Assembly: GCA_018817905.1 (NCBI GenBank)
Contig: JAHISS010000087.1
Span: 985 to 64,984, forward strand
Length of the DNA: 64,000 bases
From: Nanobdellota archaeon
Lineage (GTDB): Archaea; Nanobdellota; Nanobdellia; Pacearchaeales; GW2011-AR1
Direction: 5' to 3'
Below, piece after piece: positions 7,313 to 24,961 of this stretch. The notes beneath the pieces are model-generated. The model was not told where the DNA came from and did not search any database. It saw only the letters and a list, made by a program, of their open reading frames with translations. A program made the position numbers and the translations under genes. Numbering within the stretch: position 1 is the stretch's first letter; the number at the start of each line of letters is the position of its first letter.

Positions 7313-7380
7313 GATAGTCGTCTGGTTTATGAGATAATCATTTGGTGCTGGTGGTGGAACATATTTTTATTCAAGATAAT
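7313..7380 (+). repeat. dispersed intergenic repeat, copy A (about 70 nt)
   Basis: GTCGTCTGGTTTATGAGATAATCAT (7317-7341) is identical over 25 nt to 33951-33975. The following TATTTTTATTCAAGATAAT parallels TATTTTTGTTTAAGATAAAT in the other copy. Confidence 0.8.
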
Positions 7381-7772
7381 TATTTCCCAGAAACCAAAAT
7401 TTCCCCGCCGGCTTTTTTAACTTTGTCAATTGCCGAACTTGAAGCTGCGGACGCTTTTATTGTCAGCTTTTCCTTTACTTCGCCAAGTCCGAGAATCTTG
7501 TAACCCTTGAGTTCGATTTCTTTTTTACCTTTGAACTTTTCCACCAGGTCTCTCAAGTTTATTGTTTTCAGTTTTTTAGAGGGTTCTTTTCTCAAAGTTT
7601 TGTCTTTTCCAAAAGGATATTTGATTAAATTCTTTTTCTGGTCTGCTCGTTTTCCAGTTCCTGCTTTTCCAACTCCTCCCCTGTTTCCAGAACCTCTGGC
7701 TTTTTTCTTAAATCCTCTTGCAGCTGTGTGCGAACCGCGATGCCTTGTGTTTTTCTTTCTTTTTTTATTCAT
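7380..7772 (-). CDS. rpl15: 50S ribosomal protein uL15
   Basis: 130 aa. MNKKRKKNTRHRGSHTAARGFKKKARGSGNRGGVGKAGTGKR is the uL15 N-terminal signature. Last gene of the cluster. Confidence 0.92.
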   Translation of the reverse strand: MNKKRKKNTRHRGSHTAARGFKKKARGSGNRGGVGKAGTGKRADQKKNLIKYPFGKDKTLRKEPSKKLKTINLRDLVEKFKGKKEIELKGYKILGLGEVKEKLTIKASAASSSAIDKVKKAGGEILVSGK

Positions 7773-7947
7773 CTTCTTCCTCTGGCTGCATTGCTAAAAC
7801 ATTTTCAGCTTCTTTTTTTTCAATCATATCTTCTGGAACTTTAGCAAAACTTTCAATTGCCTGGCATTCCTCGCATTCTTGCGGAGGATACTGGCCGTAT
7901 TCGACGTTTCCGCATTCGCATTCCCACATGAAACCGTCTTTTGACAT
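7765..7947 (-). CDS. small zinc-ribbon protein (60 aa) inserted between uL30 and uL15 (insert 13)
   Basis: WECECGNVEYGQYPPQECEECQ gives a CxC...CxxC knuckle pair, followed by an acidic tail. Start overlaps the uL30 stop (1 nt) and the end overlaps the uL15 start (8 nt). Confidence 0.6.
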   Translation of the reverse strand: MSKDGFMWECECGNVEYGQYPPQECEECQAIESFAKVPEDMIEKKEAENVLAMQPEEEDE

Positions 7948-8369
7948 TACAACATCCTCCTAACCAAATCATTTATTTTCTCTTTGTTGTCTCCGAGAAC
8001 TGCCTTGCTGCTTGTTCCGAAATGTTTCTTTGAGTCTATTCCTCCTCTTGGCGGATGCAGCCTGAAAAAAGATTTTAAGCCTAAATCGTTCAATGATTTT
8101 TTGGCTAATCCTTCAACAATTTTCTCAGCGCTGATTTTATCTCCAGCTTTAATCGGTTGGCCTCTTTCCTTTATTAGTTGAACAAGAGTTTCTTTGTCTA
8201 TTGTTCCGTATGCGACATAGCTCCTTATTTTTTTTAAGAGTTTCAGATTTTCTTTAGTTGGCGCAAGAAGAACTGCAGAATACTTTCTTCTAAGTTTAAT
8301 TCTGAACAGGGTTTCTGTTACTTCCTTTGGAATTTCTACTTGGCCTGATATTCTTATTGTTAAAATCAT
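7947..8369 (-). CDS. rpl30: 50S ribosomal protein uL30
   Basis: 140 aa. ILTIRISGQV..TLFRIKLRRKYSAVL and FRLHPPRGG are archaeal uL30 hallmarks. Confidence 0.92.
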   Translation of the reverse strand: MILTIRISGQVEIPKEVTETLFRIKLRRKYSAVLLAPTKENLKLLKKIRSYVAYGTIDKETLVQLIKERGQPIKAGDKISAEKIVEGLAKKSLNDLGLKSFFRLHPPRGGIDSKKHFGTSSKAVLGDNKEKINDLVRRML

Positions 8370-9187
8370 TATGTCCTCATCTTTGTTGTTTTTTCAAGAG
8401 CATTGACGCATGCTTTTGCTAAATTGAAAGTTGTTTTTGTTTGTCCCTGCGTTTTTGTGTAGGCGTCTTTGATTCCTGCGAGTTTAAGGATTTTTTTGCA
8501 TTCGTCTCCTGTGACCAAGCCGGTTCCGCGAGGCGCTGGCCAGAGAGTAATTTTTACACTGCCTGATTTTCCCTGAACTTTGAACGGAACTGTGTGGGGA
8601 ATGCTGTCTTCTTTTTCATCTTCTGGAGATTCAAAACCAAGGTTAATTTTTATGAGGTTTAGTTTTGAGTTCCTAACTGCTTTTTCCCTTGCTGGCAGGG
8701 TTTCGCTTGCCTTGCCAAAACCAACTCCAACATGTCCTTTTTTATCTCCAGCAACTGCCATTGCAGAAAATGAAACAACATTTCCCTCCTGGGTTTTCTT
8801 TTGCGTTTGCCTCCACGCTCTTCTCTTGCCTCCGCCAAATTTTCCCTTTGCCTGACCAATTAAAATCAGGTCTGTCTCAATATTCAAAAGCGAATCAACA
8901 ATTTCTGATTCTAAAATCTTTTTTCCTTTTTCTAAAATCTTGTCAATGTCTTTTTCTTTTTTTTCTTTTACTAATCTTCCAAGATTGGTTTTTGGAACCC
9001 ATGCAGCTAACAGCACCTTAGGATCTTCCCTCTGAAATCTCCCATCTCTCCGGCCGTATTGTTTTTTTGAATTTTCTGTTTTTTCTGGCTCTTCTGTTTT
9101 TTCTGTTTCTTTCTCTAACTTTACAACTTCTTCTGGTGTTGCTTCAACAAGATCTTTTGGTTCGTTTTTTGTTTCTTTTTCTGCCAT
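8369..9187 (-). CDS. rps5: 30S ribosomal protein uS5 with Lys/Glu-rich N-terminal extension
   Basis: 272 aa. Core GKRRAWRQTQKKTQEGNVVSFSAMAVAGDKKGHVGVGFGKA and WPAPRGTGLV. The first 45 aa or so are a KE-rich extension. Confidence 0.92.
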   Translation of the reverse strand: MAEKETKNEPKDLVEATPEEVVKLEKETEKTEEPEKTENSKKQYGRRDGRFQREDPKVLLAAWVPKTNLGRLVKEKKEKDIDKILEKGKKILESEIVDSLLNIETDLILIGQAKGKFGGGKRRAWRQTQKKTQEGNVVSFSAMAVAGDKKGHVGVGFGKASETLPAREKAVRNSKLNLIKINLGFESPEDEKEDSIPHTVPFKVQGKSGSVKITLWPAPRGTGLVTGDECKKILKLAGIKDAYTKTQGQTKTTFNLAKACVNALEKTTKMRT

Positions 9188-9188
9188 T

Positions 9189-9509
9189 TTATTTTCCGTG
9201 CCTCCTTAATACTGCGTCTCTTTCTGAATGTCCTTCATCCTTAGGGCCATAGCCCCTATCTCGATTCGGATGTAAAAACGTTACTTTTCCATTATGTATT
9301 GGGTAGGAAATAACATCAATTGCTTGAGTTCCAGGGACCCTTCTAAGAAATCTTGCTCTTTCCGAATGACTCCTATAATTTCCTTCATGTGTCTCACTAA
9401 AAAACAATTCCAATTCTGATCCTTGATCGGGCTGAACTAACACCCTATCTTCAGACACGAGGTTTCTTGCCTTTAACGTTTGGCTTGATTTTATTTCTAA
9501 AGTTGCCAT
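9189..9509 (-). CDS. hypothetical protein interleaved in r-protein operon (insert 12, 106 aa, uL18|uS5 junction)
   Basis: 1-nt spacers on both sides. Its own SD AAGGAGGT lies in the last uL18 codons. Its last codons AAGGAGGCACGGAAAATAA supply the SD for uS5. Arg 12 vs Lys 5. No family recognised. Confidence 0.65.
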   Translation of the reverse strand: MATLEIKSSQTLKARNLVSEDRVLVQPDQGSELELFFSETHEGNYRSHSERARFLRRVPGTQAIDVISYPIHNGKVTFLHPNRDRGYGPKDEGHSERDAVLRRHGK

Positions 9510-9510
9510 T

Positions 9511-9984
9511 TTATAACTTTTCCTTTACCTCCTTAAAGATACTTTTAAGCTTTTCGTTAGCTTCAATTCTTTCTGTTTTTGGCAAGGTGCTTTCTTTATG
9601 CGGGATTTTCAAACCAGCGTCTATTGCTCCTTTTACAAGTGCGTAGATTCTTGAACCGTGAATGTTTCTGTTCAGACCGAAATCTAAAATCGCTTCGTTG
9701 ACTTTTGTCTTTATGTTTTTTACTAGGAGGAATCCGGTTAAGTAAGCGGCTGGAAGAGATTTCAAACTTCCTGATTTTTCTTTTGGCCAACCTTTTTCAA
9801 GGAGTTCCTGCGAGCTCGCCTTTGCTACAACTTTGTCCTGAGCTATTTGCGATTCAACAATCTGAGCGATAATGTAATGATTTGTTTTTCTTACGACTAA
9901 GCGCGGTTTTTCTGACTTCAACATTGTAAATCTTGCTTTGTAGTCTGTTTTTGCTTGTTTTCGGCGACGTTTTAGAGTTTTCAC
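9511..9984 (-). CDS. rpl18: 50S ribosomal protein uL18
   Basis: 157 aa. RRRKQAKTDYKARFTMLKSEKPRLVVRKTNHYIIAQIV is the uL18 signature. Confidence 0.92.
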   Translation of the reverse strand: MKTLKRRRKQAKTDYKARFTMLKSEKPRLVVRKTNHYIIAQIVESQIAQDKVVAKASSQELLEKGWPKEKSGSLKSLPAAYLTGFLLVKNIKTKVNEAILDFGLNRNIHGSRIYALVKGAIDAGLKIPHKESTLPKTERIEANEKLKSIFKEVKEKL

Positions 9985-10397
9985 TTTTCTTCCTCCTGCA
10001 TTTCAGCTAACCTTTCTTTCATGTGAGCCAAACTTCTGAAGTCTGAGGCCCGGATTTCTTTCCGCAATTTGTAATAATCTTCCAGCGAAATTTTCTTTCT
10101 CTTCTTCAAGTTTGAAAGATAAGTTCTTAATTTTCTCGTCATAGTAACATAATCTTGTTTTCTTGTCTTCACTGTTTTCTTTACTGAACCAGCACGTCTT
10201 CTTGTTTTTCTTTTTTTGATTTTTCTCCGTCCCTTTTTTTCCTCTATGAAAATCGCGCCAGATTCTTTCAAATCTTTCATGTCTTGTTTTGTTATTGCTT
10301 CTTTTAATTCTGCCAAGCGCGCGGTGTTGAAAGAGATTCTGTTCTTTCCTGTCTTTAACGCCCTTGCAGCTAACTCTTTTTTCTTTTCAAGTTTCAT
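9981..10397 (-). CDS. rpl19e: 50S ribosomal protein eL19
   Basis: 138 aa. KKELAARALKTGKNRISF...ITKQDMKDLKESGAIFIEEKKGRRK is typical eL19. Confidence 0.92.
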   Translation of the reverse strand: MKLEKKKELAARALKTGKNRISFNTARLAELKEAITKQDMKDLKESGAIFIEEKKGRRKIKKRKTRRRAGSVKKTVKTRKQDYVTMTRKLRTYLSNLKKRKKISLEDYYKLRKEIRASDFRSLAHMKERLAEMQEEEK

Positions 10398-10696
10398 GCT
10401 GTCCCCCGATGTTGTTCGACGAATTCTGAAACTGTCTTAAATTCAGGATGTGTTTCAGGAATTCTGCTCGTTGAAGTAAGGGATGGTTCTAAAACATCTA
10501 AGCCCGATAAATTATAAACACTTCTTAAAAATGCTAACTGACCCTCCACTGGGACTGGTTTTGGATCAATTATTTCTACAACCGTTCCCTTGGTTTTATA
10601 CACTAATCCTTTTGGGATCCTTTGACAAAAAACTTTTTCTCCAGGGTGATAAGATCCTCTAACTTTCAGTTCCCTTGGTCTTGTTTGCGTTGTCAT
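10394..10696 (-). CDS. hypothetical protein interleaved in r-protein operon (insert 11, 100 aa, eL32|eL19 junction)
   Basis: ATGA overlaps with the eL32 stop and the eL19 start. Begins MTTQT. Ends ..ACAGCATGA. No family recognised. Confidence 0.65.
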   Translation of the reverse strand: MTTQTRPRELKVRGSYHPGEKVFCQRIPKGLVYKTKGTVVEIIDPKPVPVEGQLAFLRSVYNLSGLDVLEPSLTSTSRIPETHPEFKTVSEFVEQHRGTA

Positions 10697-11043
10697 TTCT
10701 TCTCCCCCTTAACATTTAAAATTTTTATTTTCTTTTCAGTTGCTTCTTTTATAAGCTCCAACTTTTTCTTTGCTCCGACTTTTGCGAGAATTGCTCCCTG
10801 GTTTTTTCCCAAATCGTTTAGTTCTTTTCTGTTGTGGACTAAAACAACTTGGAGATTTTGGATTTTTCCTGCTTGTTTTTTTGGTTTTTTGTATCCAACT
10901 GAAACTGTTTTTGCATGACCATGCATGTTTAGCCTCATCTTACTGTCGCGGCCCTTTGGTCTTCGCCATTTTTGCAGTTTCTTTCTTCGCTTTCCGATTC
11001 TTGAATGTCTGTCTGCTTCCTGCCTGATGAATTTTTTTTTCAT
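10693..11043 (-). CDS. rpl32e: 50S ribosomal protein eL32
   Basis: 116 aa. FIRQEADRHSRIGKRRKKLQKWRRPKGRDSKMR is the eL32 signature. Confidence 0.92.
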   Translation of the reverse strand: MKKKFIRQEADRHSRIGKRRKKLQKWRRPKGRDSKMRLNMHGHAKTVSVGYKKPKKQAGKIQNLQVVLVHNRKELNDLGKNQGAILAKVGAKKKLELIKEATEKKIKILNVKGEKK

Positions 11044-11585
11044 TATAATCCCCTCCCTGGTTTTGAAACCAAGTGAATACCGTCTTGGAAAATTCTTCGG
11101 TCCCTGCCTCGAACCTTGGTAGCTTTTTCAATATTTGCCATTGTTTTTCCTGCAGCTTCTCGGTCATTAGAAGAAATAGTTACCTTCTGCCCCTTAATTT
11201 GAACTTCGACATTTGGAAAAATTTTTGCATGTCTTGGAGTTTTCTCCCCTAAAAAATTGTTTATTGCGAGTTGATTTCCTTCGACTTTCAAAGTCATCGG
11301 AAAATGAACATTCACTGCCTCTAACTCGTAAACAAACTTCTCTCCTAAACCTCTAAAAAGATTTTTGATGTGCGCGATTTGCGACTTGATGATTTTGTAT
11401 TGGTTTTTGTTTCCTTTTTTACAACTGATGACAATTTCGTTTCCCTGAAGTTGTATTTCTATCTGCGGAATGTTCATATCTCTTGAAATTGAATCAGAAC
11501 CCTTTGTGCAAGTTAGTTTTTTATTTTCATAAGTGCAAGAAATGCCTTCGGGTATTTCAACTTTTTCTAGGATTTGGTGTTTCAT
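11043..11585 (-). CDS. rpl6: 50S ribosomal protein uL6
   Basis: 180 aa. Two-domain uL6 pattern: VEIPEGIS..., HFPMTLKVEGNQLAINNFLGEK, RGRDRRIFQDGI. Confidence 0.92.
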   Translation of the reverse strand: MKHQILEKVEIPEGISCTYENKKLTCTKGSDSISRDMNIPQIEIQLQGNEIVISCKKGNKNQYKIIKSQIAHIKNLFRGLGEKFVYELEAVNVHFPMTLKVEGNQLAINNFLGEKTPRHAKIFPNVEVQIKGQKVTISSNDREAAGKTMANIEKATKVRGRDRRIFQDGIHLVSKPGRGL

Positions 11586-11586
11586 C

Positions 11587-11952
11587 TTATGCTGCGCTCC
11601 TATCTTTCTTACAGGATAATTCTAAAACTGCTTGATAGGGTTTATAGAAACGTTCACGAACAATTTCAATTAATGGTTTGTAATAATCTGGAAAAACAGG
11701 TCTTTCTGTTTTTGGATTAATGCCATATTTTCTAAAATCTGATTGGGCCAAGGGCATGGCTTCAAAAGCTGTGTGATACTCTCTCATCAAAACGTTTGTT
11801 TTACCAGGGTTGCCAATTACCTGTTCTGCCCTGTCTAAATGTGTATGTATAAAATTTGCAACAACTAAAAATTTAGCCATGTCTCCGCTTATAGCCCGTT
11901 GTTCCCAAAGTTTTCCTATTGTGACAAGAGAAGGATTTAATTTTTTAGCCAT
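11587..11952 (-). CDS. hypothetical protein interleaved in r-protein operon (insert 10, 121 aa, uS8|uL6 junction)
   Basis: 1-nt spacers to the uS8 stop and the uL6 start. Ends AGCGCAGCATAA. No family recognised. Confidence 0.65.
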   Translation of the reverse strand: MAKKLNPSLVTIGKLWEQRAISGDMAKFLVVANFIHTHLDRAEQVIGNPGKTNVLMREYHTAFEAMPLAQSDFRKYGINPKTERPVFPDYYKPLIEIVRERFYKPYQAVLELSCKKDRSAA

Positions 11953-11953
11953 C

Positions 11954-12328
11954 TTAATAAAAATAAGCTATCAAGCTTCCTCCGATGTTTTTATCCTGGG
12001 CTGTTTGGTGAGTCATGAGTCCTTGCGATGTTGAAATGATTAAAAATCCGATGTTTTTTGCCGGCAGGTATCTCTTGACGTATTTTTCAATTTCGTCGAC
12101 TTTTACCATGAAGCGCGGCTTGATTGCGTTGCAGTTGTTTAATTTTCCAAGTTCAATCTTTAGGTTTGTTTTGTCGGTTTTGTAACTTTTTACATATCCT
12201 TTTAATTTCGCGATTGCTAAAACAGAACTGAGAAGTTTTGAATGTCTTTTTACTTCTACGATTTCCTTTCCAGCTCTTCGGATGTTCATCATCTGGTTTA
12301 GCGCGTCTGCTACTACATCTTGTGACAT
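11954..12328 (-). CDS. rps8: 30S ribosomal protein uS8
   Basis: 124 aa. DVVADALNQMMNIRRAGKEIVEV and GGSLIAYFY are the uS8 termini. Confidence 0.92.
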   Translation of the reverse strand: MSQDVVADALNQMMNIRRAGKEIVEVKRHSKLLSSVLAIAKLKGYVKSYKTDKTNLKIELGKLNNCNAIKPRFMVKVDEIEKYVKRYLPAKNIGFLIISTSQGLMTHQTAQDKNIGGSLIAYFY

Positions 12329-12329
12329 T

Positions 12330-12560
12330 TTAACTATATTTTTTGAAGCCGATTTCTACTGCGATTTCTCGGAAGCAGTGTCGGCAGATGTTTAGATTAT
12401 ACTGATTGAGGTGAGCGCCGAAGCGACCGCATCTTTCGCATTTTCGCGCGGCGATTCCGGTCTTTCTTTCCTTCGGCTTGCAGTGCTTTAGGAACTTTTT
12501 CATAATTTCTGGTTTGTCCTTCAATTGCTTTGTTATTTTTTTCCAATCTGATGCTGTCAT
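12330..12560 (-). CDS. rps14: 30S ribosomal protein uS14 (zinc type)
   Basis: 76 aa. CERCGRFGAHLNQYNLNICRHCFRE is the Zn-ribbon uS14 core. Has an N-terminal extension relative to typical archaeal uS14. Confidence 0.88.
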   Translation of the reverse strand: MTASDWKKITKQLKDKPEIMKKFLKHCKPKERKTGIAARKCERCGRFGAHLNQYNLNICRHCFREIAVEIGFKKYS

Positions 12561-12862
12561 ATTGTGTCTGCCTCCAAGATTTCCTTAAACCTTTCGAATA
12601 TTTCCATTTCTTTTTCTCCACGCAAACAGTCTGGGTGCATTGTATAAACACTATCATCTCCATTCCTACGCGATATTGTTGAGCCATCGAATAATAATTT
12701 AAAATGCGTGGTGCCGAAAACTTCGATTGATCCTTTGTTGTTGCCTGGTTTAATAAATTGATGATATGGGTATTCTCCATCAACATATTTGAATCTTTCT
12801 CCAGAAGGTCTGACTGGATACCATTCGCCCATTGCCAACTTTGGTTTTGTTTGTGTTGTCAT
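12557..12862 (-). CDS. hypothetical protein interleaved in r-protein operon (insert 9, 101 aa, second ORF at the uL5|uS14 junction)
   Basis: ATGA overlaps at both ends. Begins MTTQT. Last codons CTTGGAGGCAGACACAATATGA carry the SD for uS14. No family recognised. Confidence 0.65.
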   Translation of the reverse strand: MTTQTKPKLAMGEWYPVRPSGERFKYVDGEYPYHQFIKPGNNKGSIEVFGTTHFKLLFDGSTISRRNGDDSVYTMHPDCLRGEKEMEIFERFKEILEADTI

Positions 12863-13215
12863 ATTCTCCTTTGTTCACTCCTTTCAACCATGGCATACAA
12901 ATCTTGAAAGCCTATTGTTCCTTCTTCAATACCCTCACATGGACAGATTTTTCGGATGCTGAAATTACTCCCTTGATCCACTGCTGCCCAATATAGGCGA
13001 AGATATTTTTTGCGAAGTATCTTATCTGTTTGTGCGAATAGTGCTCTTGCCCCGTCTGTATCGGCCACGGTTCCAACATAGTTATATCTAACCCGCCTAT
13101 CTGGGGAAACTATTATATCTCCTTCATGTATAATGGTAATATCTATGAGGGGATTTGCTACTACTACCGCATGTTCACGATGAATTAATGGGGTTGCCGC
13201 TGTCATCTCACTCAA
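12859..13215 (-). CDS. hypothetical protein interleaved in r-protein operon (insert 8, 118 aa, first ORF at the uL5|uS14 junction)
   Basis: 8-nt overlap with the uL5 end and ATGA overlap with insert 9. AAAGGAGAATATGA supplies the SD for insert 9. Arg 11 vs Lys 4. Confidence 0.65.
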   Translation of the reverse strand: MSEMTAATPLIHREHAVVVANPLIDITIIHEGDIIVSPDRRVRYNYVGTVADTDGARALFAQTDKILRKKYLRLYWAAVDQGSNFSIRKICPCEGIEEGTIGFQDLYAMVERSEQRRI

Positions 13216-13744
13216 CCTCTGTCTCGAAGTTTTCTTCGAGGAATTTAATTATTTCTTCAGGGGAAATTTTTTGTTTTTCTGGGAGTTTTCCTCTTTTGAT
13301 TTTTCTTCTCTTAACTCTTACTCCTGCTCTGATAAAACATGCAGTTACATTTAAACCTCTAATTCCAATTTCTCTTTGATATTCTATCCCGGGAATTTCA
13401 ATGTATTCATGGATTCCAAAAGAAAACGAGTTTTCTGCGATTTGCTTTTCGTCGAGCTCGTTGTCAACTGCGCCTAAAAGTTTTTTCAGGATTTCAAAAG
13501 CATGTTTTCCACGCAATGTCACTGATGTTCCAAGAGGTAAGTGCGGCTTCACTCCAAAGTCAGGAATTCTCCGCTTTGGTCCTGCCTTCATGATTTGCGC
13601 TTTTTTTCCTGAAATCATTTCCAAAAGTTTCTGCGACTTTTCAAGATTCGGACCTGTTGCTCCACAGCTAAGAACAACTTTCTCAAGTTTTACTTCTCTC
13701 ATTGGATTTTCTTTTTTTTCCTGGATTTGGGTTTGGGTTGTCAT
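13208..13744 (-). CDS. rpl5: 50S ribosomal protein uL5
   Basis: 178 aa. NPMREVKLEKVVLSCG..., RRIPDFGVKPHLPLGTSVTLRG, GIHEYIEIPGIEY. N-terminal MTTQTQIQEKKE precedes the usual start; an alternative start is M15 at 13702. Confidence 0.92.
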   Translation of the reverse strand: MTTQTQIQEKKENPMREVKLEKVVLSCGATGPNLEKSQKLLEMISGKKAQIMKAGPKRRIPDFGVKPHLPLGTSVTLRGKHAFEILKKLLGAVDNELDEKQIAENSFSFGIHEYIEIPGIEYQREIGIRGLNVTACFIRAGVRVKRRKIKRGKLPEKQKISPEEIIKFLEENFETEVE

Positions 13745-14013
13745 CTTTGTCCTCCCGGACCTCTGAAATAAGCATTCGTAAATTGAATTAGTAAAATACT
13801 GTAAAGTCTCTCCATTGCATTAACTAAACCGAGATATGCCTCTTGATTCGGTGGCGATGCCAGGGTTCTTCTCATTTCTCCAAAACGTTGATTAATTCTG
13901 TCCCTTGCTGCGAAAAAACCTTTAATGTTATTTCCTTCTTCGGCATATCTTCTTTGTTCGCTTACATCTTTCAATACTTCTTCTGTGAAAGATGCGATTT
14001 TTGCTAAACTCAT
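13741..14013 (-). CDS. hypothetical protein interleaved in r-protein operon (insert 7, 90 aa, eS4|uL5 junction)
   Basis: ATGA overlaps with the eS4 stop and the uL5 start. Last codons GGTCCGGGAGGACAAAGATGA carry the SD for uL5. Arg 10 vs Lys 3. Confidence 0.65.
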   Translation of the reverse strand: MSLAKIASFTEEVLKDVSEQRRYAEEGNNIKGFFAARDRINQRFGEMRRTLASPPNQEAYLGLVNAMERLYSILLIQFTNAYFRGPGGQR

Positions 14014-15021: not shown

Positions 15022-15022
15022 T

Positions 15023-15322: not shown

Positions 15323-15323
15323 T

Positions 15324-15749
15324 TTACAAAACATACTGAGCAATCTTGGCGACAGATGGCCAACGCTCCTGAACCTCCCTTGCAACTGGACCTTTAATTT
15401 GAGTTCCTTTTGGATTGCCTTTGTCGTCTTTCATTAAGGCTACGGCGTTGTCTTCGAAGCAGACTCTCTCACCTGTTAGTCTCCGGTAAGGTTTCTTTTG
15501 GCGGATTACAACTGCATCAAACACTTGGCCTTTCATGTCCGGCTTTCCTTTTCTGACAGAGACTTTTACCCAGTCCGATATTTTAGCATACTGCTGTCTT
15601 TTCTTTGTTGTTTTTCCGCCTTTTACTCCTGTGATTCTGACAATTCTCGCGCCGCTGTTGTCTGAAGCAAGAACCTGACTGCCAATGTTTAAACCGCGCG
15701 TTGCTCTTGCACTAATCGCCTTTCCGAATATTTTTTTTGATTTTGTCAT
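15324..15749 (-). CDS. rpl14: 50S ribosomal protein uL14
   Basis: 141 aa. GLNIGSQVLASDNSGARIVRITGVKG...FEDNAVALM is the uL14 signature. Confidence 0.92.
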   Translation of the reverse strand: MTKSKKIFGKAISARATRGLNIGSQVLASDNSGARIVRITGVKGGKTTKKRQQYAKISDWVKVSVRKGKPDMKGQVFDAVVIRQKKPYRRLTGERVCFEDNAVALMKDDKGNPKGTQIKGPVAREVQERWPSVAKIAQYVL

Positions 15750-16057
15750 TATTCGATTTCCTCCAAAGCTTTCTTAATTAAAGGATAAAGCGGATGACGC
15801 CTGTTTGCCCAGTAATGATTGTGACTCTTCTGAACAGAAGAGAACGTTCCATTTGGAAAAAGGACAAAACTATAAACCGGAATACAGCCAATAGTGTGGA
15901 AATTCTCCGTGTCCACTACGATAAGACTCCCGTCTTCCATGCCTGCGTATCGTCCTTCTATCCCTGAAGCCTCTCCGATAACTACATTATCTCCAATCTT
16001 AGTGTTTCTCGCATCTTCTGCTGTTCTTACTAACAATGCGGGTCTTCGTGGACTCAT
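15749..16057 (-). CDS. hypothetical protein interleaved in r-protein operon (insert 5, 102 aa, uS17|uL14 junction); weak Rpp29-like motif
   Basis: ATGA overlap with the uS17 stop and TAATG overlap with the uL14 start. GCTTTGGAGGAAATCGAATAATG supplies the uL14 SD. KIGDNVVIGEASGIEGR...IPVYSFVLFPNG loosely recalls the Rpp29 Sm-like pattern (LIGxxVxV..GIEGxVVDET..IPK..xFxF). This assignment is not secure. Confidence 0.6.
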   Translation of the reverse strand: MSPRRPALLVRTAEDARNTKIGDNVVIGEASGIEGRYAGMEDGSLIVVDTENFHTIGCIPVYSFVLFPNGTFSSVQKSHNHYWANRRHPLYPLIKKALEEIE

Positions 16058-16398
16058 TCTCCCCCTCCCTCTTTTTTCCTAATCTTCTCAACAACAATGA
16101 AATGAATCATCTTGCTCAATGGCCTGCATTCCTGGACTTTGATTAAATCACCAATATGGATTTCATGGGCAAGTTCTTCTGGCAAACGGGCGTGGATTCT
16201 TGTTTTCTTTTTGAGAAAGCGCTCGTATTTTTTAATTTTAACTGTGCGCTCGAATTCTATGGCGACTCGGGTTGGGAATTTCCTTGTGACAACTCCTTGA
16301 AAAATCCTGCCGCGGGTTGAGACTTTAGTTCTGACTAAGTTTTCTGTTTTCTTTTTTGTGGATTTCTCTATCTGTTTTTTCTTTGACGTTTCTGTCAT
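16054..16398 (-). CDS. rps17: 30S ribosomal protein uS17
   Basis: 114 aa. GRIFQGVVTRKFPTRVAIEFERTVKIKKYERFLKKKTRIHA..IGDLIKVQECRPLSK is the uS17 OB-fold signature. Confidence 0.92.
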   Translation of the reverse strand: MTETSKKKQIEKSTKKKTENLVRTKVSTRGRIFQGVVTRKFPTRVAIEFERTVKIKKYERFLKKKTRIHARLPEELAHEIHIGDLIKVQECRPLSKMIHFIVVEKIRKKEGGGE

Positions 16399-16424
16399 TT
16401 TCTCTTTGCTTTGCGATGTGCGAG

Positions 16425-16721
16425 TTAATCGCTGATGGACTCTTCGGGAAAGCCTAGCTTCACAAGAATCGGCCGGAGCTTTTTCTTGTGGTCGCCTTGC
16501 AGTTCGATGACGCCGTTTTTAGACGTGCCGCCGCATGCCAGTTCTTCTTTCAGGCGTTTTCCTGTTGCCTTGATGTCCACGTGTTTGTCAAACCCCTCGA
16601 CAAGTGTTATTTTTTTTCCGTATCTCCTTGTCTCGGTGCGCACTTTTATGTGCTGTTCGCTTTTAGCGATTTCTTCAAACACATCGGTTTCTGTTGGTAA
16701 ACCGAATTCGTTTGAATCCAT
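16425..16721 (-). CDS. sui1: translation initiation factor aIF1 (SUI1)
   Basis: 98 aa. IKVRTETRRYGKKITLVEGF...LKEELACGGTSKNGVIELQGDHKKKL is the SUI1 signature. Confidence 0.9.
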   Translation of the reverse strand: MDSNEFGLPTETDVFEEIAKSEQHIKVRTETRRYGKKITLVEGFDKHVDIKATGKRLKEELACGGTSKNGVIELQGDHKKKLRPILVKLGFPEESISD

Positions 16722-16942
16722 TATTTCTTTTTCAACCCATCCTCTTTCAAGGATTTGTTGAATTTTTCTGATTTCATGAATGTATTTAATCGTGAAATTG
16801 CCCTTTTAATCTCTTTGGTTTTAGCATTTGTCTTGTTTGCAGCGACATTTGCTCTGACCAGTTCCATTTTCAAATCTTTTAACTTGCTATCTCTCTCCCT
16901 TGCTGTCATCTTTGCTATTTCTTTTGATTTTAGGATTGCCAT
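16721..16942 (-). CDS. rpl29: 50S ribosomal protein uL29
   Basis: 73 aa. ILKSKEIAKMTARERDSKLKDLKMELVRANVAANKTNAKTKEIKRAISRLNT is typical uL29. Confidence 0.9.
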   Translation of the reverse strand: MAILKSKEIAKMTARERDSKLKDLKMELVRANVAANKTNAKTKEIKRAISRLNTFMKSEKFNKSLKEDGLKKK

Positions 16943-16948
16943 TTTATG

Positions 16949-17254
16949 CTATTGAACCTCCCCAGGTATATTACTTCTCCTTCTTAGTTCAGTTAATTCT
17001 TGTTCTAACTCTCCTAATGAAGACATCAATTCTACTCTCATTTGACTGGGCGCTTTTTGTGATAAATGATCTGTGGGAATGCAGGGAAGTTCTTGGCTAA
17101 TGAATTGATACACCTCTACATCCAAACTTGCCAATTGGTCAAGGAGTCCTGAATATCCTGGCAAGCCAACAGTTTGAACACCTTGCACTCTCTTTGTAAG
17201 ACTCTGGGTTTGTTTATAGAGTTCTTCGTATACTTCTCGGCCTTGTGCAATCAT
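16949..17254 (-). CDS. hypothetical protein interleaved in r-protein operon (insert 4, 101 aa, uS3|uL29 junction)
   Basis: ATGA overlap with the uS3 stop. Last codons GGGGAGGTTCAATAG give the SD for uL29, 6 nt downstream. Gln/Leu/Glu-rich and helical-looking. Confidence 0.62.
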   Translation of the reverse strand: MIAQGREVYEELYKQTQSLTKRVQGVQTVGLPGYSGLLDQLASLDVEVYQFISQELPCIPTDHLSQKAPSQMRVELMSSLGELEQELTELRRRSNIPGEVQ

Positions 17255-17973
17255 TCTTTTTCCTCCTCAACTTTCTTAGGCGCTTTCTTTTTGACTGTCT
17301 TCTTATCTGTCTTTTTCTTAACTTCGGTTTCTTCTTGCTGGTTCATTTCTTCTAAAGTAACCTTTATTTTTTGTCTGAGAGCTTCATCAATTTTTATTTG
17401 GTCGTGAAGTTCTGCTTCTGGTCTGAGAATAGCGACTTTGACACCGACAACTCCGGCGATTGTTGTTGCCTGGCTTTGGGCCCTGTTGACTACTTTTGCG
17501 GTATCGCCGGTTTTTTTCAAATAACCCTGGGTGAATCTCCAGGTTCTGGCTCTGTCGCTTGGCAGTTTTCCTGACAAAACAATTTCTGTTCCTAAAGCTC
17601 CTGCTTTCATTATCTGTTGTAATGTTCTGTAAGCGATAACTTTGAATTTTAATGAGCCTCTTCTTTCAAGTAACAAAGCGATGTCATCTGCAACTAATTG
17701 CGCGTCAAGCACTGGCTGCGTAATTTCTACAATTTCAATGTGCGGATTGTCGAGGTTGAATCTTTTTTTAAGTATTCTTGTCAGCTCGTCTATTTTTTCG
17801 CCTTTCCTTCCAATTACTAATCCTGGACGCGAAGTGAAAACTTTTATTTTTTCTCCTACTGGCGTATACTCAATGCTGACGTCGCTGATTTTTCCCTTCC
17901 CCAAACTATTTTTGATGTAATCTCTTACTCTGAACTCATCTTTCTTAAACGCGACAAATCTTTTTTCTTCCAT
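17251..17973 (-). CDS. rps3: 30S ribosomal protein uS3 with Lys/Glu-rich C-terminal tail
   Basis: 240 aa. KH-domain region PGLVIGRKGEKIDELT and GALGTEIVLSGKLPSDRARTWRF. The last 40 aa or so are a KE-rich tail. Confidence 0.92.
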   Translation of the reverse strand: MEEKRFVAFKKDEFRVRDYIKNSLGKGKISDVSIEYTPVGEKIKVFTSRPGLVIGRKGEKIDELTRILKKRFNLDNPHIEIVEITQPVLDAQLVADDIALLLERRGSLKFKVIAYRTLQQIMKAGALGTEIVLSGKLPSDRARTWRFTQGYLKKTGDTAKVVNRAQSQATTIAGVVGVKVAILRPEAELHDQIKIDEALRQKIKVTLEEMNQQEETEVKKKTDKKTVKKKAPKKVEEEKE

Positions 17974-17974
17974 T

Positions 17975-18415
17975 TTATGCGAAAACCTCCCTTAGCACTC
18001 TTAAAGCGTTATCTCTTTTTTTCCAATCTGGGTTCGTTACTCTGAGATAAGACCTGCCGTGACCTTCATCAGTAAAATGTTCTACGGTGCAATCTCTCAC
18101 ATGATAAATAAGGGAGGTTGAATCATGATATGCGCTATGATCTGGACTTGTAATGGGGGCACTAAAGTCTGTATCGCCAAAGCAGAGTATAATCGGATTA
18201 TCAATTCTGCGTTGAGGACTGGCTAATTTGGCTAATGCATTTCCTAAGTTTGCATTAGCACTTGTCACAAATTCTAACATTTCATGCATTTCAGGAAAAT
18301 CCCCCGCATCAAAGATATATAAATCAAACTCGTCGTCTCTGGCTGAACCGATTTTCCATTCAAACCCCCCAATACGATTTTGTCCAATTAACTTTTGTTG
18401 TGTTGCTTTTGCCAT
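17975..18415 (-). CDS. hypothetical protein interleaved in r-protein operon (insert 3, 146 aa, uL22|uS3 junction)
   Basis: Start overlaps the uL22 stop (TAATG). Last codons GGGAGGTTTTCGCATAA supply the SD for uS3, 1 nt downstream. Asp/His-rich (DHSAYHDSTSLIYH, HFTDEGHG). No family recognised. Confidence 0.65.
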   Translation of the reverse strand: MAKATQQKLIGQNRIGGFEWKIGSARDDEFDLYIFDAGDFPEMHEMLEFVTSANANLGNALAKLASPQRRIDNPIILCFGDTDFSAPITSPDHSAYHDSTSLIYHVRDCTVEHFTDEGHGRSYLRVTNPDWKKRDNALRVLREVFA

Positions 18416-19029
18416 TATTCCTTTCCTCCTTGTTTCTTAGGAAATTCCTTTGCTTTTAGAATAATGTTTGTCCTCTTTGATAATGTGCCGCCGCGACGCA
18501 TTTGTCTTCGCGCCCAAGAAGCAGAGGCGATGGAAATTCGCGTGGTTTCAAGTTCAAGTCCGTTTGTTATCGCGTTGCCTTTCAAAGCTTTCAAAAGATT
18601 AATAAAATATCCTGATGCTTTAATCGGGTATCTGCCTCGCTCCATGCTCCCTTTTCTGTGCGGCGTTTCTCCCCTGAACGGAACTGCCTGCTTAAACTTG
18701 GAAACTTTCTCAACGTCAGAAATTGCCTGGTCTATTTTTTTGTTTTTGATAAATCTGCAAAGATACACTGAATGTTTTTTCGAAATCGGCAATCCTGCGC
18801 CTCTGGCAATTGCTTCTTCTTTCTTAACTTTAGGAATTTCTTTCTTTTTTTCTTCCTTCTTCTCTGACTTTTCTTCAACTTTATCTTCCAATTTTTCTTC
18901 AGCTGTTTCTTTTTTTTCTTGCCTCATCTTTTCTTCTATTTCTTTGGTTTTTTCTTTGTCGACTGGCAACGGCTTTGCTTCTATCTTTTTCTTTTTTTCT
19001 TCTGCTGGTTGTTTATTTTCTTCTTTCAT
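18415..19029 (-). CDS. rpl22: 50S ribosomal protein uL22 with a ~75-aa Lys/Glu-rich N-terminal extension
   Basis: 204 aa. Core ARGAGLPISKKHSVYLCRFIKNKKIDQAISDVE...PFRGETPHRKG..GRYPIKA. Confidence 0.9.
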   Translation of the reverse strand: MKEENKQPAEEKKKKIEAKPLPVDKEKTKEIEEKMRQEKKETAEEKLEDKVEEKSEKKEEKKKEIPKVKKEEAIARGAGLPISKKHSVYLCRFIKNKKIDQAISDVEKVSKFKQAVPFRGETPHRKGSMERGRYPIKASGYFINLLKALKGNAITNGLELETTRISIASASWARRQMRRGGTLSKRTNIILKAKEFPKKQGGKE

Positions 19030-19030
19030 T

Positions 19031-19447
19031 TTATTTCTTCATTGCTCTCGATGATTTAGTTGCTCCGATTCCTGCGCTGCCGTGGTTTACTCTTGTTCGC
19101 GTTGGTGCGAATTCTCCCAACCGGTGTCCAATCATTTCAAAAGTTATTAGAACTTCTTGGAAATTTTTTCCGTTGTGAACGCCGATTGTCAAACCAACAA
19201 GTTTGGGAACTATGACTATGTCTCTTAGATGTGTCCTGATTTTTTTGCCTTTTGCAACTTTTCTATCGCATCTTTTTATGAATTTTTCAATTGAATCAAA
19301 AGTTCTTAAGACAGTTCTCCTGCTGCGTGAAGGAAGGAACTTGGCTATCTCTCTTGCATCTAGGGTTTTTAATTCTTCTATGGGCCTGCCTCTGTAAATT
19401 TGTTCTCTTCGCTTTACTTTTTCTTTTTCTTTCTTTTTGTGTGCCAT
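19031..19447 (-). CDS. rps19: 30S ribosomal protein uS19
   Basis: Track ORF trimmed to MAHKKKEKEK (ATG at 19447), 1 nt after the uL2 stop. Core GLTIGVHNGKNFQEVLITFEMIGHRLGEFAPTR. Confidence 0.9.
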   Translation of the reverse strand: MAHKKKEKEKVKRREQIYRGRPIEELKTLDAREIAKFLPSRSRRTVLRTFDSIEKFIKRCDRKVAKGKKIRTHLRDIVIVPKLVGLTIGVHNGKNFQEVLITFEMIGHRLGEFAPTRTRVNHGSAGIGATKSSRAMKK

Positions 19448-19448
19448 T

Positions 19449-20150
19449 TTATTTCCTACAACCTGTTCTTCTTGGACGAACATGCCCAACTTTTCTTCCT
19501 GGGGGAGCGTTACGTTTTGCTATCTTTTGTTTGACTCTCTTGCCTCGGCCAGAACCAAACGGGTGGTCTACTGCGTTAGCTTTTACTGCGGAAGTTCTCG
19601 GCCATAATTTTGATTTTGCTTTCATCTTGTAATACTTTTTCCCAGCTGTGACAAAAGGCTTTGCGACGCGGCCGTCACCGGCAATTCTTCCGATTGTTGC
19701 GCGACAGTTCTCGTTGAGGGTTACAACTTTCTTATTGGGCATGGTGACTGTTACTTCTGTGTTTTCTAATTTTTTTGAGAGTATTGCTGACGAGCCAGCT
19801 GTTCGCATCATTTTTCCTCCGTCTCCAGGATTTTTCTCTATGTTAAAAATATGAGTTCCTGGAGGTATTTTGTTTAATGGTAAAATGTTTCCTTCTCCGG
19901 GACTGGTGTTAATGGAAATTTTTTGCCCGACAAATGCGCCGTTGAACGCAGCGTTGTAGAAAGTTTTGTTCTTGATTTGGACTTTCATCAATGGAGCAGA
20001 ATGTGCGGCAGAATGGATGATTGCGATAATCTCTGCCTCGCCTTGTGCTTCGACTGGAGGATAAGCAATCTTTTTGTTGAACGCTTTCTTTCTGACTCTG
20101 TAAGTTAAACTTCCCTTGCCCCGCGCTTGTTGAATTATTCGTTTTCCCAT
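19449..20150 (-). CDS. rpl2: 50S ribosomal protein uL2
   Basis: 233 aa. GKRIIQQARGKGS..., NAVDHPFGSGRGKR and PGRKVG are uL2 hallmarks. Confidence 0.93.
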   Translation of the reverse strand: MGKRIIQQARGKGSLTYRVRKKAFNKKIAYPPVEAQGEAEIIAIIHSAAHSAPLMKVQIKNKTFYNAAFNGAFVGQKISINTSPGEGNILPLNKIPPGTHIFNIEKNPGDGGKMMRTAGSSAILSKKLENTEVTVTMPNKKVVTLNENCRATIGRIAGDGRVAKPFVTAGKKYYKMKAKSKLWPRTSAVKANAVDHPFGSGRGKRVKQKIAKRNAPPGRKVGHVRPRRTGCRK

Positions 20151-20151
20151 T

Positions 20152-20499
20152 TTATTCTCTTCTTCTAAGATTTACTTCTACCATGTCATCAAACAACTCC
20201 TTGTATCTTACATCACTTTGGTCTAAGGTGATATATCTACCACCAAGAGTTGTAACTATTCCATTCTTCCCAAATCTAAGCCCATTTTCAGACACGATAA
20301 ATAAATAAATGGAATCTCTTGTGCGTGGGAAAGCAAACGAGAAGTCTCCTTCTTCTGAACCTCGATATTGGGCTAGTGTTCCCCCAGCAGACAAGCCATA
20401 GCCGTCTATTCTTACTACTTTTTTAACCGCCCGATGCAGCTCATCTAAACTATTTACTTGTGTCTCTATATCTTCTATATCCCTTGCTTCTTGTGCCAT
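20152..20499 (-). CDS. hypothetical protein interleaved in r-protein operon (insert 2, 115 aa, uL23|uL2 junction)
   Basis: Start overlaps the uL23 stop (TAATG). 1-nt spacer to the uL2 ATG. Arg 12 vs Lys 4. No family recognised. Confidence 0.65.
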   Translation of the reverse strand: MAQEARDIEDIETQVNSLDELHRAVKKVVRIDGYGLSAGGTLAQYRGSEEGDFSFAFPRTRDSIYLFIVSENGLRFGKNGIVTTLGGRYITLDQSDVRYKELFDDMVEVNLRRRE

Positions 20500-20741
20500 T
20501 ATATCATCCCCAGCTTTGTCGCGACGTCGATGGCTGGGTTCTCCTTTGCAAATTTTACATAAGCATATTTTTTGTTATTGCGAAGCAAGGTCCTGACTTT
20601 TTCAACTTTCACTTTGAATGTTTCTTCTACTTCTTTCTTGATTTCTTCTTTTGAGAATTTTCTCCCAACCTGGAACAAGAGAGTGTTGTCTATGTCCACC
20701 ATTTTTACTGCTTTTTCTGAAGTTATTGGTTTGAGTATCAT
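20499..20741 (-). CDS. rpl23: 50S ribosomal protein uL23
   Basis: 80 aa. ILKPITSEKAVKMVDIDNTLLFQV..KEEIKKEVEETFKVKVEKVRTL is the uL23 signature. Confidence 0.9.
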   Translation of the reverse strand: MILKPITSEKAVKMVDIDNTLLFQVGRKFSKEEIKKEVEETFKVKVEKVRTLLRNNKKYAYVKFAKENPAIDVATKLGMI

Positions 20742-21520
20742 GATGTTTCTTCCTTCTTTTCATTCCCAAGTTCTTTAATTGCTTTGTGAGTGTAAATTGT
20801 CAATCTTCCCAACGGATACAAATCAGCAATGGAAATATCGCCAACTGTCTTCACTTCAACGCCAGAAAACTTCACGTTTTCTTTTTCTGAGATTATCAAA
20901 AGTGCGCCTGCGCTGGATTTGTATTTCCTTCCGCGAAGTTTTCCTTTGCCGGCTCTAACTGCTTTTTTCTTAAATGCGAGAGCAAAACTTTTCCCAAGAA
21001 TATTTTTCATGGCTTGTGCAAGTTCTTTTGTTTTTTTTGGCAGCGACTCTATGACAAAAGGAATGTTTTCAATTTTTTCAAGAGAAAAATATCTTTTCAG
21101 GACAAAGTCTTTTTGCGCAGTCGCGGCAATCGCAGAGTTCATCGCTAACTGGATTTCTTTTTTGTTAATTTTCTTTTCCTTGCCAATTCCTTTTGGGGGA
21201 TGTGCTCTTCGGCCGCCTCTTGAACCTGGGATGTTTGCGCCAACCCAAATAAACTGAGTTCCCCGTCTCGACATTGTTTTTCTTGGAACGCGAGAGATTC
21301 CTCGACCGTAGTGTCCTTTCCAGTCATGTCTTTTGTGAGATATTGTTCCTGAAGCTGACTGACGAAGCCCTGCCCGGGGATTTGAAGAATACGGCTGGAT
21401 GAATTTGTCTGCTTCGAAATATTTTTGGACGATGTCTTTTCTCACGCGGATTTCAAATATCTTGGGTAATTCTATTTGGGATTTTTTCTTTCCGTCGCTT
21501 GAATAAAGTGTTGTTTTCAT
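20738..21520 (-). CDS. rpl4: 50S ribosomal protein uL4
   Basis: Track ORF trimmed to MKTTLYSSDGKKK (ATG at 21520), because the longer form would overlap insert 1. Core SHKRHDWKGHYGRGISRVPR and GGRRAHPPK. Confidence 0.9.
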   Translation of the reverse strand: MKTTLYSSDGKKKSQIELPKIFEIRVRKDIVQKYFEADKFIQPYSSNPRAGLRQSASGTISHKRHDWKGHYGRGISRVPRKTMSRRGTQFIWVGANIPGSRGGRRAHPPKGIGKEKKINKKEIQLAMNSAIAATAQKDFVLKRYFSLEKIENIPFVIESLPKKTKELAQAMKNILGKSFALAFKKKAVRAGKGKLRGRKYKSSAGALLIISEKENVKFSGVEVKTVGDISIADLYPLGRLTIYTHKAIKELGNEKKEETS

Positions 21521-21524
21521 TTTG

Positions 21525-21812
21525 CTAAATATATTGAATATTTCCCCCTGCTTCCAATCTTGCAGATATTTCTGGAATGGACTCAAGGGTTCCAACCCTT
21601 TCGACTGTTTTTCCAGTTTCTGATTCATAAACTCGAGTTAGATAGTCACATGAAGCTAAAACATGAACTCGCATAATCACTAATCTGTCATCAAGTGTCT
21701 GCGCTTTTTCACAATCGCCATTTTCTCTAGCACCCTTAGCAGCCTTTCTAAATAAGTCATGCTTTTTCTTCCAATAAATTACTCTTTCTGCAGCTTTTTT
21801 TAATTCGCTCAT
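21525..21812 (-). CDS. hypothetical protein interleaved in r-protein operon (insert 1, 95 aa, uL3|uL4 junction)
   Basis: 1-nt spacer after the uL3 stop and 4-nt spacer before the uL4 ATG. SD GGAGGT lies within the last uL3 codons. No family recognised. Confidence 0.62.
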   Translation of the reverse strand: MSELKKAAERVIYWKKKHDLFRKAAKGARENGDCEKAQTLDDRLVIMRVHVLASCDYLTRVYESETGKTVERVGTLESIPEISARLEAGGNIQYI

Positions 21813-21813
21813 T

Positions 21814-24423: not shown

Positions 24424-24424
24424 T

Positions 24425-24957: not shown

Positions 24958-24961
24958 TAAA

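Follow-up and report, generated by a model that had tools for sequence, protein, structure and literature searches.

How do thirteen small open reading frames (ORFs) come to stand between the genes of the archaeal ribosomal-protein supercluster, a textbook case of frozen gene order? The question is raised by a stretch of 64,000 nucleotides (nt) from a Nanobdellota archaeon (GenBank assembly GCA_018817905.1, contig JAHISS010000087.1, positions 985 to 64,984), which is called the window below. The host is a Woesearchaeota-type DPANN archaeon and belongs to a clade of tiny groundwater archaea. On the minus strand of the window (7380..22755) lie the 23 canonical genes of the ribosomal-protein (r-protein) supercluster. 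Read from 22755 to 7380 they are uL3, uL4, uL23, uL2, uS19, uL22, uS3, uL29, aIF1, uS17, uL14, uL24, eS4, uL5, uS14, uS8, uL6, eL32, eL19, uL18, uS5, uL30 and uL15, which is the canonical archaeal order. A preliminary description, made from the letters alone, had named these genes, and its assignments are supported by Pfam, gene order and junction spacing; only uL29 (E = 8e-5) and uL30 (E = 4e-3) scored under the Pfam cut-off and were assigned by position. The extra ORFs are numbered here ins01 to ins13 in the same direction. The reading that we favour, and hold to be rather probable, is that they are promoterless single-gene accessory cassettes, seated at the stop/start junctions of the r-protein polycistron, mostly dispensable and swapped by recombination. 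They are not one family, and they are probably not structural ribosomal proteins.

All 13 ORFs were recovered on the minus strand at the positions first given for them. They encode 60-146 amino acids (aa), fill 12 of the 22 gene junctions from uL3 to uL15 and sum to 4,101 nt, or 26.7% of the 15,376-nt cluster, in agreement with the early estimate of ~27%; the Arg:Lys counts and the tight junctions were reproduced as well. One start codon was revised, as for ins08 a TTG at 13215 had been taken and the ATG at 13206 is likelier given the NCBI and ENA gene calls. The spacers around the inserts measure -8 to +6 nt, and an insert starts at, or overlaps, the preceding stop codon. Because these stop/start overlaps leave no room for them, the inserts have no promoter or terminator of their own. 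Nearly all inserts have a GGAGG-like motif 8-15 nt before the start, within the 3' end of the preceding gene; for ins01 this Shine-Dalgarno (SD) sequence is a GGAGG in the 3' end of uL3. The 3' end of each insert itself holds a GGAGG-type motif that serves the next ribosomal gene (for uL5 a GGGAGG inside the 3' end of ins07), and since these ends encode the SD-like motif, the insert C-termini are Gly-rich, which had earlier been described as a similarity at the termini. The net charge of the insert proteins is near neutral or acidic (K+R about equal to D+E), whereas the flanking r-proteins are strongly Lys-rich. A common MTTQT start was seen in uL5, ins09 and ins11 (13730-13744, 12848-12862 and 10682-10696, respectively), with synonymous differences in the codons, and one insert of a related contig (L079, introduced below) starts with MTTKP; the common starts may reflect selection on A-rich start regions, not shared ancestry.

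The same order, in DNA that is 99.98-100% identical, was found in GCA_018815165.1 (a metagenome-assembled genome (MAG) labelled 'Nanoarchaeota archaeon'), in ERZ27247128 and in Logan SRR27458548 and SRR6514274, and a further contig (L005, Logan SRR10598177) agrees with the window down to position 16906. As it is found in five independent assemblies, the arrangement is not an assembly artefact, and the junctions stand as first reported. The near-identical contigs differ by 0-12 nt with no difference inside the inserts, and thus give no population estimate of the ratio of non-synonymous to synonymous substitution rates (omega). L005 matches the window exactly over ins03, uS3 and ins04, after which 54 differing positions follow across uL29 and aIF1 (window 16634-16905); the contig is a chimera of the assembly or else stems from a second, recombinant strain.

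The inserts also look like coding sequence. Of the junction gaps of at least 150 nt in the clade (n=124), 89% were covered over 90% or more of their length by an open frame on the sense strand. On the antisense strand this held for 9%, and after shuffling for 0%. The remaining 11% mostly held two ORFs back to back. The GC content of the inserts falls from the first to the third codon position (GC1 > GC2 > GC3 = 0.50/0.39/0.29), and most indels that separate related inserts have lengths divisible by 3. No Rfam families or tRNAs were detected in the cluster region, which rules out known RNA genes.

Occupancy, turnover and exchange of the inserts

Related clusters were fetched by eS4 from genome and metagenome collections, together with contigs encoding insert homologues, and the spacing was scored for every junction. 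The resulting matrix holds about 35 Woesearchaeota/Pacearchaeota clusters, in which WIN denotes the cluster of the window. Between 0 and 12 junctions are occupied per cluster, and in all 124 distinct insert ORFs were collected, 90 of which are singletons; the zinc ribbon represented by ins13 is the only broadly conserved family. Compact clusters free of inserts occur in outgroups (Pacearchaeota L012 and L013, L059 and Nanoarchaeota L014), a typical Woesearchaeota/Pacearchaeota cluster has 1-5 inserts, and the subclade of the window is the richest, with 12 occupied junctions in WIN, 9 in L015, 7 in L079, 5 each in L018 and L008, 4 in L009 and 3 in L083. The uL30/uL15 junction is filled in 61% of the clusters, not by the ins13 family alone, followed by uL14/uL24 (43%, the second highest), uL23/uL2 (41%), uL3/uL4 (27%), uS17/uL14 (25%) and uL22/uS3 (22%). 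The junctions on both sides of aIF1 were never occupied (uL29/aIF1 in 0 of 40 cases, aIF1/uS17 in 0 of 42).

The comparison with the nearest relatives (r-proteins 74-76% identical) returned partly the same junctions but not orthologous content, as the junctions mostly hold unrelated ORFs. L015, the nearest relative by r-protein identity (76%), has seven occupied junctions in common with the window, and the positional counterparts, the zinc ribbon excepted, differ in length and show no similarity (z about 0). In the pair L010 and L011, with r-proteins that are 85% identical, only one of six occupied junctions is in common, and where a site is filled in one and empty in the other, the difference is exactly a single ORF unit (start codon to stop, plus 0-1 nt) between unchanged flanks. 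At three junctions that are filled in both WIN and L079 (uL23/uL2, uS17/uL14 and uL14/uL24) the ORFs are unrelated, and judged by their sequences this is replacement, not drift. The preliminary description had offered, as one of two possibilities, that a family of genes colonised the most highly expressed operon. Colonisation comes close to the evidence; 'a family' does not, given the 90 singletons among the 124 inserts and the 8 of the 13 window inserts that lack relatives.

The clearest cases of transfer come from L079, a 22-kb contig of another study, with r-proteins that are 60-89% identical to those of the window and a synonymous divergence (pS) of 0.5-0.8, which is near saturation. The insert at uS8/uL6 (ins10, 11587..11952, minus strand, 121 aa) is 95.9% identical between WIN and L079 at the nt level with a pS of 0.04, whereas its flanks reach 78% (uS8) and 69% (uL6) with a pS of 0.6-0.7. 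For the insert at eL32/eL19 (ins11, 10394..10696, minus strand, 100 aa) the values are 85.5% and a pS of 0.21, against about 70-72% and a pS of 0.6-0.8 for its flanks. Each version, with its own flanks, recurs in several independent assemblies (the L079 version in four), and the WIN and L079 organisms co-occur in sample ERZ27247128. Since a synonymous divergence fifteen-fold lower than that of vertically inherited neighbours is impossible for genes inherited along with them, we conclude from these sequences that at least two inserts, ins10 and ins11, were recently exchanged between co-occurring lineages and entered the same junction laterally. In 7 of the 23 r-genes (for instance uL4 21476-21520, uS8 12284-12328 and uL6 11541-11585), WIN and L079 share 91-98% identity over the first ~45 nt, compared to about 70% for the gene bodies; these stretches could serve recombination as short arms of homology, or they could be due to constraint on the initiation regions. 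A ~40-nt identity that runs from ins10 into uL6 was considered as a co-conversion tract and set aside; it is no proof of co-conversion, as seven r-genes exceed 90% identity over their first 45 nt in any case.

In relatives, such junctions also hold recognisable genes. Those for NUDIX hydrolases (L051:15065-15511 and L057:7020-7439), a DEDDh RNase_T-type exonuclease (L030:3704-4333) and a DUF5680 protein (L031:14678-15169) are likewise joined from stop to start, and a further one encodes a PEP-CTERM-motif protein. The NUDIX gene was 77% identical between two genomes with r-proteins that are 69% identical. As a further observation, L010 and L011 (JAIFVW01 and JAIFVX01) are Pacearchaeota MAGs with insert-bearing clusters, one of them a 575-kb scaffold, and their isolate names contain 'viral-cat'; such orphan-rich genomes may have been mislabelled by virus-detection pipelines.

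On the cassette reading, the inserts would be transcribed and translated with the operon through translational coupling, as the arrangement of the junctions suggests, and their frames would stay open since any stretch left untranslated would uncouple the essential genes downstream or make their expression polar. In Archaea, a polarity mechanism through the termination factor FttA/aCPSF1 is reported. By analogy with replacement-type flexible islands, spread and replacement would proceed by homologous recombination via the conserved r-gene flanks. Most cassettes would be passengers, i.e. captured accessory genes of which some are decaying, and a minority (the ins03, ins06, ins10, ins12 and ins13 families) would be longer-lived small proteins.

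Inventory of the inserts

None of the 13 inserts matched Pfam at E <= 0.01, which bears out the earlier statement that none is recognised as an r-protein or as a usual passenger of the cluster (Rpp29, aIF1, Adk, Cmk), and no homing-nuclease domain (LAGLIDADG, GIY-YIG, HNH or PD-(D/E)xK) was found in them by Pfam. Further scans were run on the pooled 124 clade insert ORFs, the 13 of the window included. Five of the pooled ORFs turned out to be r-protein pieces mis-called as inserts, and only these gave ribosomal-protein matches in NCBIfam. Apart from them, NCBIfam, PHROGs and PADLOC returned on the 124 inserts only rubredoxin-like models and a few enzyme families, and PHROGs also three unnamed families. 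The PADLOC matches comprise four families with one or two members each, the output not showing whether any of these is a window insert, and no PADLOC family was reported for ins01, so that nothing in the Pfam and PADLOC scans marks the window inserts as anti-phage defence or toxin-antitoxin proteins; the PDC-S07, DEDDh and exonuclease-effector matches are attributed to the NUDIX and exonuclease genes of relatives. Nuclease-type matches among the 124 inserts are limited to a single weak one to LmuA and to exonuclease models of the DEDDh type (in Pfam for one insert). A viral origin was considered and not retained: ins10 and ins11 had no relatives in IMG/VR, and PHROGs gave NUDIX, exonuclease and MazG-type matches, which are attributed to the enzymes of relatives, besides the three unnamed families of one member each.

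In an exhaustive phmmer search of 1.84 billion representative proteins, in which 11 inserts were used as queries, seven matched only themselves (ins02, ins04, ins05, ins07, ins08, ins09 and ins11), and for ins03, ins06, ins10 and ins12 between one and four relatives were recovered per insert (32-49% identity), with a further one at 91% for ins10. As ins01 matched only itself among 5.8 billion protein clusters, eight of the 13 inserts are without a relative beyond themselves. Several simple origins were tried and rejected. Duplication or frame shift from the neighbours or the rest of the window left nothing significant in blastn-short and tblastn, and the inserts have no DNA similarity to one another or to the remaining window. 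The insert termini have no shared direct or inverted repeats or hairpins, and therefore do not resemble attC sites or the ends of miniature inverted-repeat (MITE) or palindrome-associated (PATE) transposable elements. A beta-rich superfamily, proposed from an N-terminal 'PxxGRvY' pattern seen by eye, was dropped when its profile recruited no further inserts.

All inserts lie on the minus strand. Among the orphans, ins01 (21525..21812, 95 aa) stands at uL3/uL4, a junction that is empty in L079, and ins02 (20152..20499, 115 aa) at uL23/uL2, where the unrelated ORFs measure 96 aa in L079 and 61 aa in L015. The uS3/uL29 site of ins04 (16949..17254, 101 aa) is empty in both of these relatives. At uS17/uL14, the site of ins05 (15749..16057, 102 aa), L079 has a 129-aa ORF with 24% identity to ins05, which is noise level. 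The insert at eS4/uL5 is ins07 (13741..14013, 90 aa), and uL5/uS14 holds two inserts, ins08 (12859..13206, 115 aa from the ATG at 13206, which leaves a 1-nt spacer; the TTG would give 118 aa) and ins09 (12557..12862, 101 aa); the two ORFs of L015 at this junction are unrelated to them. There was no Pfam match for ins01, ins02, ins04, ins07 and ins09 and no significant one for ins05 and ins08. The eighth insert without relatives in the searches, ins11, is a cassette laterally shared with L079, and its sole representative in the library clustered at 50% identity is ins11 itself.

The other inserts belong to families. The longest one, ins03 (17975..18415, 146 aa, uL22/uS3), has homologues P0013, P0014, P0015 and P0019 at 34-45% identity in the alignment, a conserved C-terminal motif (YHVxDCTV...YL.I.N.DYKKR..AL.VL.EVF) and an AlphaFold model of moderate confidence with a generic alpha+beta fold. 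The helical ins06 (15023..15322, 99 aa, uL14/uL24) aligns with P0016, P0018 and P0020 at 35-37% identity and is weakly linked by profile to other uL14/uL24 inserts (E = 0.015). Profile iteration ties several helical families across uS17/uL14, uL14/uL24 and eS4/uL5, so some cassettes have relatives at other junctions. The recently transferred ins10 has one distant homologue, P0017 (42% identity in the phmmer search, 39% in the alignment), and its AlphaFold2 model is all-helical and of low confidence (pLDDT 61). For ins12 (9189..9509, 106 aa, uL18/uS5), which has no Pfam match, one homologue was found (P0012, 49% identical). The distant homologues that were checked keep the same junction, i.e. 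P0013 at uL22/uS3, P0017 at uS8/uL6, P0012 at uL18/uS5 (on L086) and P0020 at uL14/uL24. The ins03-like P0015 (L087:93-503) lies outside any r-protein cluster, convergent with an EF-2 gene, and at least one cassette family is thus also an ordinary gene elsewhere.

Finally, ins13 (7765..7947, 60 aa, uL30/uL15) is an acidic protein with a CxC...CxxC zinc ribbon and the only clade-conserved insert, with 13 family members among the fetched loci and 13 database relatives, of which the named ones are all called 'hypothetical protein'. It has itself no Pfam match at E <= 1. Six clade inserts match NF045720 and three PF21349 (RUBY_RBDX), models for rubredoxin-like zinc ribbons of the RCKP or rubrerythrin type, at E values of at least 4e-5 and 2e-4, respectively; we attribute these inserts, which the scans do not name, to the ins13 family. 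ins13 and the ins03 family are the best candidates for a real conserved function.

Constraint on the inserts and competing explanations

Four insert pairs with unsaturated divergence (479 codons) gave a pooled omega of 0.67 (bootstrap 0.47-0.94), compared to 0.20 (0.12-0.32) for the r-proteins of the same genome pair. For ins10, WIN and L079 differ by 12 non-synonymous and 3 synonymous changes, which corresponds to an omega of 1.05, and a value of 0.2 or below was rejected (P = 0.004). Between L022 and L034 the inserts are 70-78% identical and the r-proteins 94%. The zinc ribbon ins13 is an exception among the inserts, with a ratio of non-synonymous to synonymous divergence (pN/pS) of 0.12 against L015. 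Judged by these sequence comparisons, the reading frames are kept open and the proteins themselves are weakly constrained. The synonymous codon usage of 11 of the 13 inserts is like that of ordinary window genes, whereas 22 of the 23 r-proteins show the r-protein pattern. GC3 amounts to 0.29 in the inserts, 0.37 in the r-proteins and 0.35 in the other window genes, GC1 and GC2 are higher in the inserts than in the remaining gene classes, and the Arg frequency is about double that of other host genes.

An omega that is near neutral, both pooled and for ins10, is also what would be expected if the inserts were translated spacers, such that any DNA forming an open stop-to-start frame survives, the protein products are junk and selection acts only on the open frame and the downstream SD motif. 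The retention of open frames and SD motifs throughout, the lack of relatives for most inserts, the unrelated positional counterparts and a GC3 below that of every other gene class all agree with this explanation, and we give it a modest chance. It is at odds with a pooled omega that stays below 1 up to its upper bound (0.94), with the several families that keep motifs and 32-49% identity despite saturated synonymous sites and with the moderately confident fold predicted for ins03. Moreover, the order GC1 > GC2 > GC3 and an Arg/Glu-rich, soluble-protein composition are unlike random AT-rich DNA, and recognisable enzymes stand at the same kind of site in relatives.

There is little support for the other possibility raised by the preliminary description, that of lineage-specific ribosome-associated or assembly proteins. 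In a somewhat wider form, with translation-regulating proteins included and co-expression explained by action on the ribosome, we consider it improbable. The location in the operon, with what appears from the junctions to be tight translational coupling, is suggestive of such a role, as are the clade-wide conservation and purifying selection of ins13 and the constancy of the junction across genomes in the ins03, ins06, ins10 and ins12 families. Yet the occupancy varies among the closest relatives (12, 9, 7 and 3 junctions within the WIN subclade), most inserts are without orthologues and, except for ins13, none is conserved in the nearest relatives. The neutral or acidic charge is unlike that of RNA-binding r-proteins, the codon usage is unlike that of highly expressed genes, no ribosome-related match was obtained in Pfam or NCBIfam, and an omega of 0.67 points the same way.

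Birth de novo in situ, from small intergenic expansions in the operon that grow, would account for the many inserts without relatives, for their weak constraint and for the continuum of sizes from about 40 to 240 aa. It does not account for the lateral transfer of complete cassettes or for filled and empty sites that differ by a whole ORF, with no intermediates. The first and second codon positions are GC-richer than in host genes, unlike the AT-rich local non-coding DNA, and known enzymes stand at the same sites in relatives; this origin seems to us a rather distant prospect.

Lateral spread to the same site at an identity far above that of the flanks, patchy presence and absence, and insertion between essential conserved genes are also features of selfish homing elements, in which the cassette or a trans-acting nuclease cuts the empty junction in relatives and the cassette is copied in by repair. 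With no nuclease domain found in the 13 inserts, cassettes that are mutually unrelated and mostly 90-120 aa long, no clear co-conversion tract and, in ins10, a most recent mover that is predicted to be all-helical and has no nuclease motif, we regard homing as very improbable. A chimera, or an artefact of assembly or binning, for which one may point to the metagenomic nature of all data and to the divergent end of the L005 contig, has next to no probability considering that the WIN sequence occurs in five independent assemblies from different studies and the L079 version in four.

Several points weigh against the cassette reading as well. The estimate of omega draws on the four insert pairs mentioned, and the ins03, ins06, ins10 and ins12 families are under real purifying selection, because 32-49% identity has been kept while synonymous sites are saturated; these families may have a specific, possibly translation-related function. 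To express a further 27% of coding sequence as strongly as the r-proteins should come at a cost, which speaks against pure passengers unless damped expression or strong drift is assumed. The high identity of the inserts does not clearly extend into the flanks, and precise cassette insertion, instead of homologous recombination, may be the route. Finally, the cases of lateral transfer are two only, and a donor pool for most cassettes was not found. Nevertheless, accessory cassettes agree better with the data on variability, composition and sequence than do the junk-spacer, ribosome-factor, de novo and homing explanations, although individual cassettes may differ.

Surroundings of the cluster, known systems and significance

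On its upstream side, the cluster is bordered by a gene for a membrane-anchored MarR/DUF7343 regulator (22896-23378), which precedes a set of ORFs with metal-binding-type motifs on the opposite strand (23455-27492), including one of 644 aa; counterparts of these genes in public records have HMA and FtrD-like Pfam matches. Beyond uL15 follow an IS200-type Y1 transposase (6428-6913, minus strand; Pfam Y1_Tnp, E = 2.4e-22), two unidentified ORFs on the plus strand (5119-5394 and 5397-6263) and SecY (3573-4970). In the relative L083, uL15 directly adjoins SecY, as opposed to the transposase and two ORFs that lie in between in the window. No integrase was seen among these cluster-flanking genes (MarR-like regulator, Y1 transposase, two ORFs and SecY).

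Full-text searches of the literature returned no description of the phenomenon. Of the known systems, the inserts in their behaviour are most like integron cassettes or replacement-type flexible islands, an assessment made by analogy. With the cassettes of sedentary chromosomal integrons they have in common that they are small, promoterless and mostly orphan ORFs in one orientation behind an upstream promoter, with fast turnover and exchange between genomes. Unlike these, they lack attC-like repeats or hairpins and are interleaved singly among essential genes instead of being stacked at one attI. Replacement-type flexible islands show the same unrelated content at one site, exchange among co-occurring lineages and conserved core-gene flanks, but they are multi-gene and lie between operons, whereas the inserts are single coupled ORFs within an operon at up to 12 sites in 15 kb.

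Other comparisons hold in part. Phage morons and hyperplastic small-ORF regions are likewise single, compositionally distinct genes between conserved syntenic genes and vary among close relatives, though the host is in our case a cellular ribosomal operon and not a virus. Morons are described as having their own promoter and terminator. Free-standing homing endonuclease genes such as the T4-like seg and mob genes also lie between conserved essential genes and reach the same site by lateral spread, the insert being more similar between genomes than its flanks; the window inserts differ in being mutually unrelated and without a detected nuclease domain, and to our knowledge they are shorter than known homing endonucleases. 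Elements of the MITE or PATE type, or derived from insertion sequences, differ from the inserts, which are not multi-copy and lack terminal repeats. The known passengers of the S10-spc region (Rpp29, aIF1/SUI1, Adk and Cmk, and Hsp20 in some Asgard archaea, PMC10833476) are, like the inserts, non-ribosomal genes embedded in the cluster. These are however single, recognisable and lineage-conserved, and the inserts number up to 13 per genome, are mostly unrecognisable and differ in every genome. In line with this, a survey of archaeal r-protein cluster organisation describes isolated additions only, e.g. Hsp20 in Asgard archaea (PMC10833476).

The uL3-uL15 region, whose gene order is regarded as frozen, is thus among the most plastic places examined in this clade, with up to 27% foreign coding sequence. 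Binning and phylogeny use the cluster as a block of single-copy, syntenic markers, and marker pipelines will misjudge these genomes if they assume contiguous r-genes or treat contigs of this kind as viral or contaminated. The clusters offer a natural system for the entry of promoterless genes into operons, for the limits that coupling and polarity set on inserted DNA in archaea, for the cost of useless expression in tiny symbionts and for the origin of orphan genes. More tentatively, and as a possibility that we hold to be doubtful rather than likely, the supercluster may be an integrase-free, integron-like platform, in which many junctions take up single promoterless ORFs from a very large orphan pool, the operon expresses them by strong transcription and translational coupling, and the r-gene flanks allow them to move between species. 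Conflicts between host and symbiont or with viruses might then place the insert proteins under diversifying selection. If true, genes in organisms with minimal genomes would have a new way of being born, tested and exchanged.

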